64,000 nucleotides of DNA from a virus. The first letter of the stretch is position 1. Each line of letters begins with the position of its first letter. The stretch lies in UHGV virus genome UHGV-0116877; one strand, given 5' to 3'. This document shows positions 8,212 through 29,038 of this stretch, piece after piece. Both the position numbers and the translations under genes were made by a program. Under the pieces are notes generated by a model that was not told the DNA's origin, searched no databases, and was given only the letters and a program-made list of their open reading frames with translations.

Positions 8212-8887
8212 TGAATAGGGAAAGGAAAGAAACAAATCTCCACTCTGCGTTTATAGAGGCTTGTGACTCTCGCCTTACGGCGGCCGCATTAGAAACAGAG
8301 TAGACCTACCGCTGGCCATCTCGCTCCTCTCGGAGCTGACGAGGACTCGACCCTCTACTCTATCTTTACTAGACTAAAGTGCATCCATCTAGCAGCTTCT
8401 CCGAGACTTTCGGCCACGGAAGCCGGAACACTTTTCGTATGTTCAATATACGGGAAGTTTAAACGGCCCCTTCCAAGTAAATAATATTGAGAAGTAAGTT
8501 TCCGAGGCTTACTTCGTTACGCCGCTGGCACGGCGCCACCAGTAGTGCCAGCTACTGGAATTTTATGGCCCTGCCGTTATCTCCCTACCACCCTCCAGCC
8601 GTTTAAGATGTCGGCTTACATCAATTTACGATACTTTCTATCCCGCCTCTATGGGCGGTTTGCTGGACGAGATTCTTTCACTCTCGTACATAGAGTTGTG
8701 GGTTGCGAAAATCTAGACTTATTTTCGACTTATATTCCCCTTACCTCTCGCTATTGTCTTACTGCCTTTTGTTTGGCTACCAGCATAGGTTTTCTTTCCA
8801 ACCTTGACCAAGTTCACCGCCACTTGGAGGAGGGTCTAACGATGACTCACCCTCTAACTAGCACCGGTCTGGGAATTTACCTATTCA
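8212..8887 (-). ncRNA. large structured ncRNA (about 676 nt; GOLLD/ROOL-class candidate)
   Basis: GC-richer stretch without a credible ORF; terminal pairing TGAATAGG/CCTATTCA; GNRA hairpins on the - strand; terminator follows. Confidence 0.7.
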
Positions 8888-13329: not shown

Positions 13330-13995
13330 TTATTCAAACTCCCAAAGAAACTTATATGCTGTTTTTCTTTTTCCATTACATACATCTAGAATGTGACTTC
13401 TTACTCCACCTGTATAATTTTTCGCGTATCCATTAGAAACCAACCATTTGCCTGCCTCCGCAGCAGAATTAAAACTTCTTAAATAATTACGACTTAAATC
13501 AAACTGTTTAATTTTTTTTGAACTATTCTTCATTTCTATCTGTAGCTTAGTTTCTGGAACGAATACTTCTAAGTCCAATTTCTTGGCTATGTCGCGAATT
13601 AAATCTCTACAACAGCCAATTTTTTCCATAATTTCTTTAGCCGATTGCTTCTCTTTAATCATATCGGCTATTAAATCATAGTCATAAAGAACTTTTCCAT
13701 CTCCACCTAAAGTGGCATTATACCCATCTCCATAAGAGTGATAATATCCTATCCAGTAACACTCTTTTTCAGATAAAAAATCTAATGGGACAATCTCAAT
13801 CATTTCGATAGAAAAATTTTCTTTTCCATACTTCTGAATTGCTCGATAAAGTGGCCTATCTTTTGCCCTTTCCAAAGAACTTTCTTTCAGATGTTCTTTA
13901 AATCTTTCTTCTATCGTTTTTGTCGTTTTGCCTATATAACACTTTCCATTGATGTTATTTGTAATCTTGTAAATAAATCCATTCATTCTACTCAC
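13330..13995 (-). CDS. GIY-YIG homing endonuclease (NUMOD1-type C-terminus)
   Basis: GFIYKITN...YIGKT...R..EH...GYN.T.GG. Confidence 0.92.
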   Translation of the reverse strand: MSRMNGFIYKITNNINGKCYIGKTTKTIEERFKEHLKESSLERAKDRPLYRAIQKYGKENFSIEMIEIVPLDFLSEKECYWIGYYHSYGDGYNATLGGDGKVLYDYDLIADMIKEKQSAKEIMEKIGCCRDLIRDIAKKLDLEVFVPETKLQIEMKNSSKKIKQFDLSRNYLRSFNSAAEAGKWLVSNGYAKNYTGGVRSHILDVCNGKRKTAYKFLWEFE

Positions 13996-14781: not shown

Positions 14782-15240
14782 TTACAACTCGCCGGAATAT
14801 GCTTTACTGCAACGATAATCTGCATAGTCAATACGAGAGCCAATTTCATCGAGAATATTCTGAAGAACAGTCTCTGCTTTCATCAAAGCAATCGCGCGAC
14901 TCCGATAATAATTCTCAAGCATACGATTACGAGCCAAAGTCATACCGTACTCTTCGTCCCATTCATCTTCAGGGGAGCACTTCGCTTTACCACGATAAGT
15001 GGGATTCATCATAAACTTATTCATATTGTACCCGTCATAAGAGATATTGCGGATGCCCATTTTCTGCAAAACATCAATGGCATCATACTCGCAATCATCC
15101 ATGACAGCTACAACAGTCTGCTTCTCTTCATCAATGTAGTATCGAATCTTGCTCTTTGGCTGAGAATCTTCCTCGAAGCAAGCAAACTCCTTGTCAATAA
15201 GCCGCAGAGAATATTCACTAGGGTTAAATTTCTTTGACAT
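14782..15240 (-). CDS. conserved phage protein
   Basis: GKAKCSPEDEWDEEYG..LA..R motif of a common phage hypothetical family. Confidence 0.8.
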   Translation of the reverse strand: MSKKFNPSEYSLRLIDKEFACFEEDSQPKSKIRYYIDEEKQTVVAVMDDCEYDAIDVLQKMGIRNISYDGYNMNKFMMNPTYRGKAKCSPEDEWDEEYGMTLARNRMLENYYRSRAIALMKAETVLQNILDEIGSRIDYADYRCSKAYSGEL

Positions 15241-18857: not shown

Positions 18858-19592
18858 TCAAATAGCTTGCCATTGTTCTTCTGTATACTTTTTAATATCA
18901 GAAGATTTAGAAGGAAGATTCATTGATTTACACCATTTCCTTATTGCATTATCTGAAACTCCGTACTTTTTACCAATAAATGTAAAAGTTGACTCTCTAA
19001 TCATTTTTTTTAATTCATTTCTTTCTGGTCTTTCTACCTTTTGTTGAGATAATCTAGCACATTCTTCACAACAATATTTTCTTTTACCAGTAAAATTTTT
19101 ACCGCAATTAGGACAAATATTTTCAGTTACTTTCTCTCTAATTGGATAAGCTAAATTAGGTAATCTACGAGATTTTCCAACATTGATATTTTGAATTGTA
19201 TTTTCATGAACATTAAATACTTTTGCTATTTCTTTTTGAGAAAGAGAAGTGTTTTTTAAAAGAGAGTAAATCCGATTTATGTCTTCATCAGAAAGCTTCA
19301 CAGGAAATGGAATACCTTTTACTCCACCTGGGATAGTGTTATATCCCTCTTCTATGGAGTTATAGAATCTAATCCAATAAGATTCTCTTTCATCTAATTC
19401 ATTAACAGGTACTTCCTCAACAATTTCAAAGAAAAAATTTTCTAGCCCATACTTTCTAATTGCTCTATAAAACTTATTATCAATATTTTCAAAATCTTTC
19501 TTATGACTTCTCCATCTTCTTTTAATATCAATAGATTGGCCAATATATACTTTTCCATTTATATTATTAGTGATTTTGTAAATTCCACACAT
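18858..19592 (-). CDS. GIY-YIG homing endonuclease with HTH/Zn domains
   Basis: CGIYKITN...YIGQS; C-terminal GVSDNAIRKWC shared with 11588-12142. Confidence 0.92.
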   Translation of the reverse strand: MCGIYKITNNINGKVYIGQSIDIKRRWRSHKKDFENIDNKFYRAIRKYGLENFFFEIVEEVPVNELDERESYWIRFYNSIEEGYNTIPGGVKGIPFPVKLSDEDINRIYSLLKNTSLSQKEIAKVFNVHENTIQNINVGKSRRLPNLAYPIREKVTENICPNCGKNFTGKRKYCCEECARLSQQKVERPERNELKKMIRESTFTFIGKKYGVSDNAIRKWCKSMNLPSKSSDIKKYTEEQWQAI

Positions 19593-20498: not shown

Positions 20499-21143
20499 TT
20501 ATTTCCAAATAAAACCACAACAAGTTTTTCTTTCTCCTTTTTGAACTCTCCCTATATTAGTTCCTAAAGAAGAAGGCTTACTTTTTGAATACCCATTTTC
20601 TACGAGCCAACGTCCAGCTTCTATTTGAGAAGAAAATTCTTTGAGAACTTCTCCTGTGTTTTTATCACACATAAAAGTATCTTCTCCCAATCTTTCTGCG
20701 ATATTTTGATAAGCATCTATGTTGCTATTTTTTAAACATTTCGTAACTACTTTCTTATCACATTCAAAATATTCTGCAATTTCTTTAACTAGCATACCGT
20801 CTTGAAATTTTTCAAGTATCTTTTCATAATCGTATAGAACTTTTCCATCTCCGCCCAAAGTAGCATTATATCCATTATGATAAGAATTATAATATTCTAT
20901 CCAAAAAATTTCTCGTTCAGATAGAATCTTATAATCGCATTCTTCTATTTCTTCTACAAAGAAATTCTCTTCTCCATATTTTTTAATAGCATCATACAAA
21001 GGACGCTTTGAAGACCTTTCTTTCTGACTTTCTTTAAGATGCTCTTTCCATCTGTCTTCTATTGTCGAAAGTGTTTTCCCAATATAAATTTTCCCATTAA
21101 GTTTATTAGTTATCTTATAAATAAAACCAGTCATTATTCTCAC
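20499..21143 (-). CDS. GIY-YIG homing endonuclease
   Basis: close paralog of 13330-13995 (GYNATLGGDGKVLYDY shared). Confidence 0.92.
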   Translation of the reverse strand: MRIMTGFIYKITNKLNGKIYIGKTLSTIEDRWKEHLKESQKERSSKRPLYDAIKKYGEENFFVEEIEECDYKILSEREIFWIEYYNSYHNGYNATLGGDGKVLYDYEKILEKFQDGMLVKEIAEYFECDKKVVTKCLKNSNIDAYQNIAERLGEDTFMCDKNTGEVLKEFSSQIEAGRWLVENGYSKSKPSSLGTNIGRVQKGERKTCCGFIWK

Positions 21144-21929: not shown

Positions 21930-21974
21930 ATAGTGGTGAGCGTGGAGAGGCTCGAACTCTCGACCACTTGATTA

Positions 21975-22579
21975 CTTTACCACATCGTTTTCACATTGTG
22001 GTCTGGACTTTCTCTTAGCCATATCAAATATTTGACTTAGGCTCACCGTGTAAAGTCTCTACACATAGAGTTTTATCAAATGAATATTCTTCAATTAGAT
22101 TAACATTAGAAGCATTGTTTAGAGGTTTTGTCTTTCTGAAATTTATAACTTTTTTATTTCCAATCACAGAAATTGGAACTAATAATGAACAATCCCATTC
22201 TGCTAAATAAAAAGCTATATAATCAACATCGTTTTCATAAGTAGATAATCCTTTGTTAGTTGTATGATTTTTACTGCTGGCACACGGGCAAGGAATAGAT
22301 TCATTTTCTGTAATTTTTTGATTACAATATTTTACTTGAATCTTATTTAATCTTCCGTTAAATTCTGCAATTAAATCATATCTAGCATTATCTCCAAATG
22401 GAATTGATACCTGAATATTTCTTTTGACAAACTCACTTAAAACGATGGCTTCTCCAATATTTCCCTTATCTTTACTATTCATTAAACTCCTTGCTCGGGA
22501 TTAGCATATCAAAGACTTAGCTTTCCCCGAATTAGCGGTGTTTTCACTTATAGATTTCTCTATAAGGCTTCTAATTTTA
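21975..22579 (-). mobile_element. group I intron (605 nt) with homing endonuclease ORF
   Basis: U-G P1 at the 5' splice site, AATTCGGGGAAA and GCTAATCCCGAG (P/Q), GTAGAGACT and AAGAGAAAGTCC (R/S), terminal G. Confidence 0.9.
22024..22482 (-). CDS. group I intron-associated PD-(D/E)XK endonuclease
   Basis: KGNIGE...PFGDNARYDLI...KIQVK; 3' end runs through the intron core. Confidence 0.9.
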   Translation of the reverse strand: MNSKDKGNIGEAIVLSEFVKRNIQVSIPFGDNARYDLIAEFNGRLNKIQVKYCNQKITENESIPCPCASSKNHTTNKGLSTYENDVDYIAFYLAEWDCSLLVPISVIGNKKVINFRKTKPLNNASNVNLIEEYSFDKTLCVETLHGEPKSNI

Positions 22580-22624
22580 AAAGTCAAGTGCTCTACCAAC
22601 TGAGCTACACGCTCATATAGAAAA

Positions 22625-22846: not shown

Positions 22847-23186
22847 TCCATTGCTGACTGAACAAGAAACCGCTCAAGAACATTTCATAAGCGATTTTCC
22901 TTTCTTTTGGAGTAAAAAGACGACGATTTCTTTGCTCAATTTGAGCAATTTTATCATCAATTTTAGCGTTCAAATCTACAGATTCATTGATTTGATACAT
23001 CTTTTATCATCCTTTCTGTCTGTTCATCAGCTTTCTTACTGGATGTTAGTAACGCAAGAACAAAAGTTAATACTGGGGCGCCTATTAAAATTCCTACTAA
23101 AAATCCAAGCCAAAACATTCTCCTTTCCTCCTTAACTTTCTATATTTATTATAGCACACTAAAGGAGAAAAGTCAAGATAAATAAA

Positions 23187-27422: not shown

Positions 27423-27887
27423 TTAAATTTTGTAAAGAACTACATCATTGTCTTTAAAGATATTACAAATCATTGGATAAACAACTTTATCCCAGTCGCC
27501 GCCACCGCGCCCGCATCCTATTTTATAGGGCATTGCAATAGGCATACGACTCTTTCTTGCTAGTCCCATAAAACACATTTCAAGAGCATCATAGTCTGTA
27601 TATTGTTTATCTCTACCATATCCATCTTGAGCAAACATATTCACGATAATTTTCTTATCTTTCGGAACTGTAACATATTGATTACAACCAAGTAATTCAG
27701 AAGTGTTTTCTTTTACAGTATCACAAATTTTTCTATATTCTTCATAAACAATAGGAAATTTATTCCGAATTGCTCTTGCGGCGCCCGAACCCATAACCCC
27801 TTTGCAATTCACTTGATGCGCAATTATCTGTTCTTTTGCAGAAACAATATTGCCATTAACAATTTTAATCATTATTCTCACTCCCAT
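27423..27887 (-). CDS. macrodomain (Appr-1-p/DarG-like ADP-ribose processing) protein
   Basis: GNI...IAHQVNCKGVMGSGAA..I...IAMPYKIGCGRGGGDW. Confidence 0.92.
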   Translation of the reverse strand: MGVRIMIKIVNGNIVSAKEQIIAHQVNCKGVMGSGAARAIRNKFPIVYEEYRKICDTVKENTSELLGCNQYVTVPKDKKIIVNMFAQDGYGRDKQYTDYDALEMCFMGLARKSRMPIAMPYKIGCGRGGGDWDKVVYPMICNIFKDNDVVLYKI

Positions 27888-27969: not shown

Positions 27970-28857
27970 TTAATATATTCCCAAAATTTCCTTTACTTTC
28001 TCGTTGCATAGACGATTCAATTCCTTGAAATTGATAGTTGGATTCTTAAAAGCCTTTACGAAATGATAAGACTCTTCTGTAATTAAAGTATGCCAAACAG
28101 TAGACAGAAGTCTCCCGATATGTTTAGACTCCCATACTCCAACTTCATTTTCAATTTTTGCCTTCTCTTTTTGTACGACAGCCTCAGTAATATACTTTTT
28201 AATAATTGCCTGCTCTACCTCATTCAGACCGACTATCTTCGGTTTTGAGGTGCCTTTCTGTTTATGAAATTCACTTCTAACAATTTTTGCCCAGGTCTGG
28301 CGGCCATAGCGATTACGGTATCCGTAATTTTTAATTACAATACCTTCCCCAATTTCGTCTCCCTGCATGAGATAATGATTGCTTTCAAGTAGCTTCATCA
28401 ACTGCTCAGTAGTTGGATTTTCAATCTTATCAAGAGGGTCAATTACAGTAATACCATAGCTCTTGAGAAGAGGAGCAAAAGTTTCATAGGGAAGATAGAC
28501 AAATCCTTCTCCATTTTCTACTGCGACATCGAAGACATACGGCTTTCTCCATGCGTCAACTTCATAATTCTTGATAGTATGAGGTACAAGCCACTCAAAG
28601 AAAATATGGTGTTCCACATGGTCAGCGAGATAGCCGCAAATATTCTCATTTTCAAGAATAGCTTTCGCACATCCAGCGTTGTCATCTTCTGGAGTAATAA
28701 ACCTCTTGCGGCTACCTACAAAGATAGTATTCCCATCTGACCATGCTTGACCGTTGGTTCCATCCAACTTAGGGTAGACATAAACTTCTCCATTCAAAAT
28801 ACCTTCAACCTCAGGAGTGCCAAGTCTTTCGATATGCTGATATCCTTTATACTCCAC
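27970..28857 (-). CDS. ATP-dependent RNA ligase (Rnl2-like)
   Basis: KLDGTN, FFEW, VFD, EGIVIK, AKIV nucleotidyltransferase motifs; GTG start. Confidence 0.85.
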   Translation of the reverse strand: MEYKGYQHIERLGTPEVEGILNGEVYVYPKLDGTNGQAWSDGNTIFVGSRKRFITPEDDNAGCAKAILENENICGYLADHVEHHIFFEWLVPHTIKNYEVDAWRKPYVFDVAVENGEGFVYLPYETFAPLLKSYGITVIDPLDKIENPTTEQLMKLLESNHYLMQGDEIGEGIVIKNYGYRNRYGRQTWAKIVRSEFHKQKGTSKPKIVGLNEVEQAIIKKYITEAVVQKEKAKIENEVGVWESKHIGRLLSTVWHTLITEESYHFVKAFKNPTINFKELNRLCNEKVKEILGIY

Positions 28858-28858
28858 T

Positions 28859-29038
28859 TTATTTTCTCCTTTCAAACAAAATAAGAACAGTTGTTAGAGA
28901 ACGAGAAACCGCCTGTCCGATAGAACAGGTAGACATTTGAACATCAATAAGATTTATTCCGCCCTGTTTAAGAAAATCATTCATTTCTGTCTGAACCATT
29001 TTTGGGTCGCCATGAAAAATCTTCGTCTCCATACTCAT
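28859..29038 (-). CDS. 59-aa hypothetical protein (not in ORF track)
   Basis: AAGGAG RBS and upstream promoter; MSMETKIFHGDPKMVQ... Confidence 0.65.
   Translation of the reverse strand: MSMETKIFHGDPKMVQTEMNDFLKQGGINLIDVQMSTCSIGQAVSRSLTTVLILFERRK

Follow-up and report, generated by a model that had tools for sequence, protein, structure and literature searches.

The 64,000-nucleotide stretch of viral DNA analysed here (the window) contains a tRNA-Lys(UUU) gene interrupted between U35 and U36 by a 605-nt group I intron. We consider it highly probable that the intron, which is predicted to self-splice from the pre-tRNA, was spread among related phages by its I-Ssp6803I-like nuclease, and that the element is selfish, a passenger with no regulatory part in lysine decoding. 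All coordinates of the split gene and its intron are on the minus strand. The 35-nt 5′ exon (22580..22614, G1 to U35) was identical at 35/35 positions to the unsplit gene in two sister phage records, L469 and L470, and the 41-nt 3′ exon (21934..21974, U36 to CCA) matched L469 at 41/41 and L470 at 40/41 positions. Between them, the IC3-like intron (21975..22579), delimited by Rfam, a junction test, alignment and the unsplit alleles, ends with the ωG at G21975, and its removal restores the host gene exactly as in the sister alleles. When 144 pairs of junctions were tried, several rebuilt a Lys(ttt) tRNA, and 22580|21974 alone gave a full 5-bp stem with a 7-nt loop while placing U just ahead of the 5′ splice site and G at the end of the intron; other junctions, such as 36/37, were ruled out for want of a terminal G. 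The unsplit genes, with 0/76 (L469) and 1/76 (L470) mismatches to the joined exons, lie in the same gene neighbourhood as the split gene, and the L470 record, the nearest viral record, has neither intron nor nuclease. Contigs from three independent sequencing runs (X1, X2 and X3) carried the intron, and one contig from X3 skipped exactly 605 bases at the locus. No spliced junction was found in four RNA-type runs (X15, X16, X17 and X19), which were available as contigs only, barely covered the locus and probably include two DNA runs. The first-pass annotation had placed a mobile intron at 35/36; the position was borne out by the junction test and the unsplit alleles of L469 and L470, and the mobility by near-identical exons with and without the intron.

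The window derives from a large tailed phage with genes for tail proteins, an endolysin, a topoisomerase, NrdD and an RNA ligase. Records of related phages measured 125-132 kb, and the sequencing runs that shared most with the window were labelled faeces, bioreactor and gut. Among the 26 tRNA genes called in the window, Lys and His were absent; ARAGORN called zero tRNA-Lys, leaving the split gene as the sole tRNA-Lys of the window, in which AAA is the most frequent codon (786/12865). L469, L470 and L475 each have one tRNA-His nearby, and none was seen in the window. Two free-standing GIY-YIG genes with Pfam matches (18858-19592 and 20499-21143) sit within the tRNA cluster in a SegB-like placement, together with a third, called by eye only (~13330-13985), all on the minus strand. 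Adjoining the cluster are genes for an RNA ligase and a macro-domain protein (27970-28875 and 27423-27887, minus strand), a possible tRNA-repair module. A match to the type-P1 twister ribozyme was seen at 8237-8295 (minus strand), with 58.5 bits against a gathering score of 67.2, an E-value of 1e-10 and all pairs standard. Upstream of small ORFs and the split tRNA, a σ70-type promoter match (23148..23176, minus strand) agrees with 11/12 consensus positions and likely transcribes the split-tRNA precursor; 7 such sites were found against 6.3 expected by chance.

The group I assignment was borne out by covariation across the core of 27 introns, by the ωG and by the U.G pair at the splice site. 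Rfam agreed in part: the group I model (RF00028, Intron_gpI) matched 22392-22590 at an E-value of 1.8e-7, with a score of 36.1 bits that falls under the gathering score of 50. The core is split by the nuclease ORF, and among ORF-less relatives L196 and L201 scored only 34-37, while 8/10 tested had no match at an E-value of 0.001. We aligned the window intron with 26 same-site introns, hand-picked from 48 candidates, and scored them on the structure drawn from the window itself; 90.9% of cells paired, whereas shuffles reached 73.9% and controls slid along the alignment 29-45%, and 30/50 pairs covaried. P1 (22568..22583; 22583-22578 with 22573-22568) joins exon C32-U35 to intron GAAG and contains, at the 5′ splice site, the pair U22580.G22571, which is kept in 27/27 introns; it was recovered in the minimum free energy fold, with 95% of cells paired and compensatory changes in 3/6 pairs, and its 3′ strand could, in addition, pair with the initial 4 bases of the 3′ exon as P10. 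P2, capped by a GAAA tetraloop (22547..22566), was also found in the fold, and 8/8 of its pairs covaried. The alignment placed the P3 5′ strand (22540-22536), P4 (22530-22525 with 22500-22495), P5 and the P6 5′ strand (22494-22493) at 22493..22540, and the P6 3′ strand, J6/7, P7 (22059-22053 with 22010-22005), the P3 3′ strand (22048-22044) and P8 (22042-22018) at 22005..22064. P3 covaried at 5/5 pairs and was 99% paired, as was P4, while P7, with the guanosine-binding pair G22057-C22006, was invariant and paired in 27/27 introns, and P6 was likewise invariant. P6a aligned poorly over the ORF-less rows, and its helix was 67% paired. Fold and alignment together placed the P9 region, with a GAAA loop and then the ωG, at 21975..22002. 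The core is compact and P5 is short; P2 and P9 each end in a GAAA loop, P8 has a receptor-like motif and P5 one that looks similar to the 11-nt receptor, a layout that presumably resembles that of the Azoarcus IC3 intron. A second P7-like motif at 14877 was rejected, as it lies inside a reading frame and has no Rfam support.

The loop of P6 carries an ORF of 152 aa (22024..22482) whose product, by sequence and by model, is an I-Ssp6803I-type PD-(D/E)XK nuclease. It matched PDDEXK_5 (PF11645) with 101 bits against a cut-off of 26.1 (E-value 6e-29). I-Ssp6803I (2OST) was its only solved relative by sequence (phmmer, E-value 8e-5), and 2OST chains filled ranks 1-4 when an AlphaFold model (mean pLDDT 82) was submitted to Foldseek (E-value 2e-8). 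Residues D36, Q49 and K51, presumably those of the catalytic D...QxK motif, align with 2OST and were invariant in 40 homologues, among which E11 was nearly invariant; at residue 8, N replaces the D of 2OST and was itself nearly invariant in the same 40. The ORF overlaps P7, as noted in the first-pass annotation, its last 14 codons running through P6, P7, P3 and P8 with the V-E-T codons forming J6/7 and the P7 5′ strand. Compared with L001, identity was 100% in the exons and 83% in the ORF body, with 38 synonymous against 20 non-synonymous codon changes; identical exons beside a diverged, synonymous-rich ORF fit a functional, mobile element. The P6a 5′ strand (22477..22492), which includes the Shine-Dalgarno sequence and start codon, is predicted to pair with the 3′ end of the ORF (~22086-22067; duplex -10.2 kcal/mol). 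Equivalent duplexes ranged from -8.7 to -18.6 kcal/mol in 8/8 intron ORFs and from -1.0 to -6.9 in 35 free-standing ones (3 further free-standing ORFs had no anchor); the same pairing also closes P6a, and a regulatory role for it may be proposed from these predicted structures. We found 515 homologues of the nuclease, and the P7-derived tail was present in 58 of the best 120. In-frame TAG codons occurred in 19/47 distinct nuclease genes (L003, L005, L007, L011, L013, L267, L268, L277, L280-L282, L284, L289-L292 and L342-L344), mostly at conserved Gln positions and with none in the window ORF, pointing to the reading of TAG as Gln in the phages concerned.

By analogy with members of the same families, as described in the available text of PMC3984707 and PMC1995217, a scheme of self-splicing and homing can be put forward. 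The pre-tRNA would fold, free guanosine would attack after U35, and the ωG step would join U35 to U36 to give a normal tRNA-Lys. Because the start codon and ribosome-binding site are predicted to be paired, in P6a, to the 3′ end of the ORF, the nuclease would be translated only from unfolded RNA. In a mixed infection, the nuclease would cut the near-symmetric DNA of the unsplit anticodon arm in a co-infecting phage and repair would copy the intron in, while the presence of the intron, by destroying the target site, would protect the phage's own genome. We infer this target from the nuclease's association with tRNA-Lys, from the junction at 35/36 that is shared, and from the symmetry of the unsplit gene about U35, which holds at 9/12 positions. 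In the same clade there is probably a second route, by which a cassette without a ribozyme interrupts the tRNA gene close to or at 35/36 while bringing a tRNA-Lys of altered arm to replace it.

We evaluated where introns occur at the same site using one pattern of the 3′ core and exon, a search that was not exhaustive, its viral scan having missed L001. Of 34 viral loci, 13 were in tRNA-Lys(UUU) (2 with an ORF), 15 in tRNA-Asn(GUU) and 6 had no mapped 5′ exon; the 63 bacterial and archaeal loci comprised 20 Lys(UUU), 17 Lys(CUU), 2 Asn and 24 without a mapped 5′ exon. Every mapped intron was at 35/36. ORF-less forms made up 11/13 of the viral tRNA-Lys(UUU) loci, and an ORF of at least 70 aa was present in only 2/37 genomic Lys loci. 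Introns at 35/36 have reportedly also been seen in tRNA-Asn and tRNA-Asp of Patescibacteria. Among cultured bacteria, same-site Lys introns were found in Acetobacteraceae (Acetobacter, Gluconobacter) and Sphingomonas, and among bins in those of Methylococcales and Clostridia. The setting thus extends beyond phages, and the first-pass annotation overstated how exceptional tRNA-Lys is as an intron host. The window ribozyme was 81% identical both to Lys(CUU) introns of Clostridia bins and to the ORF-less phage intron L046, which hints weakly at a Bacillota host. Two ORF-less introns, L046 and L219, nested among ORF-bearing ribozymes, and related PD-(D/E)XK ORFs were found in the corresponding loop of Asn introns (37-45% identity) and of Lys(CUU) introns of Methylococcales (27-28%). 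A check for classic collaborative homing found no nuclease gene accompanying the ORF-less intron in the records of L046 (29% complete) or L173 (74% complete). Of two other sequence patterns, one matched mostly by chance, with 9/120 loci resembling tRNA introns, and the other gave 3 introns in 17 loci. The whole element was found in none of 50,697 records of cultured phages; three partial core matches there were checked, two apparently in protein genes (terminase and the nrd region) and zero in tRNA. In a cultured phage, the gene for the terminase large subunit seems to be interrupted by a group I intron that had not been annotated (L465:1170-1420, Aeromonas phage OP718284, and L467). At five genome loci (L200, L210, L218, L236 and L239), the intron-split copy is preceded, 110-170 bases upstream, by the 5′ half of a tRNA-Lys, in a layout resembling that of integration-site remnants.

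Relatives of the nuclease also occur outside introns. We identified 46 distinct full or near-full nucleases with at least 49% identity, 7 intron-borne and 39 free-standing, leaving out the fragment L303. Window-type G30-A31/U39-C40 exons were present at 6/7 intron loci, the 5′ exon of the seventh (L291) being unmapped. An intact tRNA-Lys(UUU), mostly with an altered anticodon arm, adjoined 29/39 free-standing genes, and in 17/39 an orphan tRNA 3′ half supplied, with its U36-A37-A38, the stop codon of the nuclease; the matching 5′ half was often visible upstream, ending between positions 31 and 36, and at L014 and L295 was followed by a near-perfect promoter. The window-type arm was found in 3/27 distinct carried tRNAs (L263, L268 and L278) against 64/114 background viral genes, and A30-U40 in 16/27 against 2/114; A39 was seen in 4/27 carried tRNAs. 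The background was selected by a consensus pattern, which favours canonical tRNAs, and the loci are mutually related, so a Fisher p-value for this contrast overstates the case. The carried tRNA differed from the dead copy in the loop or at positions 39-40 in 15/16 loci with both, and other tRNA-Lys genes in these loci had the window-type arm in only 2/6. At the orthologous locus of the sister phage L472 (19861-19936), a tRNA-Lys with A30-U40 and C33, possibly an immune allele, has no nuclease nearby, and none was found in its 57%-complete contig; altered arms are thus not exclusive to neighbours of the nuclease. An apparently intact tRNA-Lys(UUU) in L003 (2833-2987), and also in L004, contains a 78-nt tRNA-like element with a CCA end in its anticodon, and a free-standing nuclease lies just downstream; by analogy with a nested tRNA intron of Lak phages, tRNA-processing enzymes might excise this element before religation. 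More distant homologues (~30-45% identity) adjoined tRNA-Ser(UGA) or tRNA-Pro, with PF11645-like genes beside tRNA-Ser(UGA) or tRNA-Pro(UGG) at L308-L318 and L016-L024, suggesting subfamilies with tRNA targets of their own.

In a tree of 8 intron-borne and 32 free proteins, built after removing the intron-derived tail and leaving out six near-duplicates and two fragments, the two forms interleaved, with 7 changes between them, at least 3 of which were forced by strong branches, and with bootstrap support that was unsettled. An AU test against a single intron clade gave p = 0.039, and the interleaving persisted when outgroups were added. The same pattern could also result from recombination inside the ORF at the locus that both forms share. 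Tentatively, and at somewhat less than even odds, we propose that one clade switches repeatedly between a self-splicing intron and a gene-killing cassette with an immune replacement. On this view, related phages show every stage in the life cycle of a mobile intron at a single site: empty, with an ORF-less intron, with an ORF-bearing intron and with a free nuclease. Successive cassettes would overwrite immune alleles and diversify tRNA-Lys arms, and could thereby generate or spread variants that escape PARIS or PrrC.

Three other explanations bear on parts of this picture. The intron may be real and splice while its nuclease is dead or cuts elsewhere, the element persisting by descent or reverse splicing; the majority of ORF-less forms, the nesting of L046 and L219 among ORF-bearing ribozymes, and the N at residue 8 where 2OST has D would all suit this. 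Against it, the ORF is intact with an excess of synonymous changes, N8 is shared by nearly all of the 40 homologues, and close homologues track tRNA-Lys in both their intron-borne and free forms while distant ones sit by tRNA-Ser(UGA) or tRNA-Pro, and we regard this reading as improbable. Still less credible is that the intron has been retained as a switch that times or gates production of phage tRNA-Lys. In its favour, the split gene is the sole tRNA-Lys of the window, where AAA is the most frequent codon, and no second similar copy was found in the closest intron-bearing record, G002, although this phage may carry another tRNA-Lys outside the window. Against it, sister phages have an identical tRNA without the intron, bacterial chromosomes have the same intron, and regulatory elements were not seen. 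The suggestion in the first-pass annotation that Lys-tRNA supply depends on splicing was not supported in any functional sense: splicing matters for the phage's own copy alone, the host also encodes tRNA-Lys, and sister phages lack the intron.

The third explanation concerns the cassettes only: their altered arms may have been selected for escape from AriB or PrrC, not from their own nuclease, which would then spread an anti-defence tRNA. In the available text of PMC12409363, AriB of the E. coli PARIS system cuts at U36AAUCA41, and a change of U39 to A abolishes cleavage of E. coli tRNA-Lys; among carried tRNAs, A39 and U40 both recur at the frequencies given above. Anti-defence tRNA loci are amplified by SegB in T6 (PMC13096335), and L472 has an altered arm where the nuclease is absent. 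Set against this, the carried tRNA differs from the destroyed copy even where the latter is itself a variant, the broken allele at L260 being A30-U40 and the carried tRNA U31-A39, with the reverse at L013, L014 and L289, as fits self-avoidance. We therefore think escape from host nucleases an unlikely sole cause of the altered arms, if a less remote one than either alternative above; the two pressures are compatible and not exclusive, and some cassette tRNAs might offer a benefit in defence. The spliced tRNA of the intron-bearing gene retains U36AAUCA41, and the intron itself thus gives no evident escape from AriB.

By testable criteria of sequence and modelled structure, the window element belongs with the tRNA-fMet intron of Synechocystis PCC 6803 and its nuclease I-Ssp6803I (PDB 2OST; PMC1995217). 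According to the available text of that source, both are group I introns, each lying in a tRNA gene, with nucleases of the same Pfam family and fold, and they are similar in size (655 nt with a 150-aa ORF in Synechocystis, 605 nt with 152 aa here). They differ in residing in a cyanobacterial chromosome and a phage, respectively, and in interrupting fMet at 33/34 and tRNA-Lys(UUU) at 35/36; structural identity between the nucleases is ~21-27%, and the window clade also includes cassette relatives that stand free at the same site. What sets the window element apart is its phage host, its position at Lys 35/36 and the existence of a cassette alternative. A survey of bacterial and archaeal assemblies, not of phage collections, raised the known settings of subgroup IC3 introns in bacterial tRNA genes from 4 to 21, namely Leu.3Ug, Arg.5Ug, fMet.2Ug, Ile2.5Ug and 17 further (Williams 2020, 10.1101/2020.01.27.920355); in its numbering the window intron is Lys.4Ug, and it shares with those introns a U before the 5′ splice site, an ωG and a compact core. 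With the T4 td intron and I-TevI, as far as described in the available parts of PMC3073962, it shares a phage setting, a P6-loop ORF that runs into P6a and P7, and a ribosome-binding site sequestered by RNA structure. The td intron, however, is in a protein gene, encodes a GIY-YIG enzyme and uses a local hairpin, whereas sequestration here is predicted to involve the ORF's own 3′ end in P6a. Collaborative or intronless homing by SegB of T4 and T6 (available text of PMC3984707 and PMC13096335) likewise has a free nuclease and an ORF-less intron converging on one conserved site, and nucleases within phage tRNA clusters. Unlike in those cases, the free form here lies within its own target, takes its stop codon from U36-A38, carries a replacement gene and is interleaved with intron-borne forms in one clade. 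Introns in tRNA genes of Lak megaphages, one with a nested tRNA-like element comparable to that of L003 and L004, were termed enigmatic and not classed as group I, with no nuclease ORF mentioned in the available text (PMC6784885). Our literature search, with most subscription papers beyond its reach, found no publication that describes a group I intron in a tRNA gene of a phage; PMC7162821 does not mention introns, and PMC11878797 mentions tRNA in a reference only.

tRNA genes that are hidden from standard finders by such introns mean that counts of phage tRNAs, including anti-defence tRNAs, are too low. [quoted passage not shown] Self-avoidance from a DNA nuclease provides a second explanation for odd arms in phage tRNA-Lys, which are usually ascribed to escape from host anticodon nucleases.
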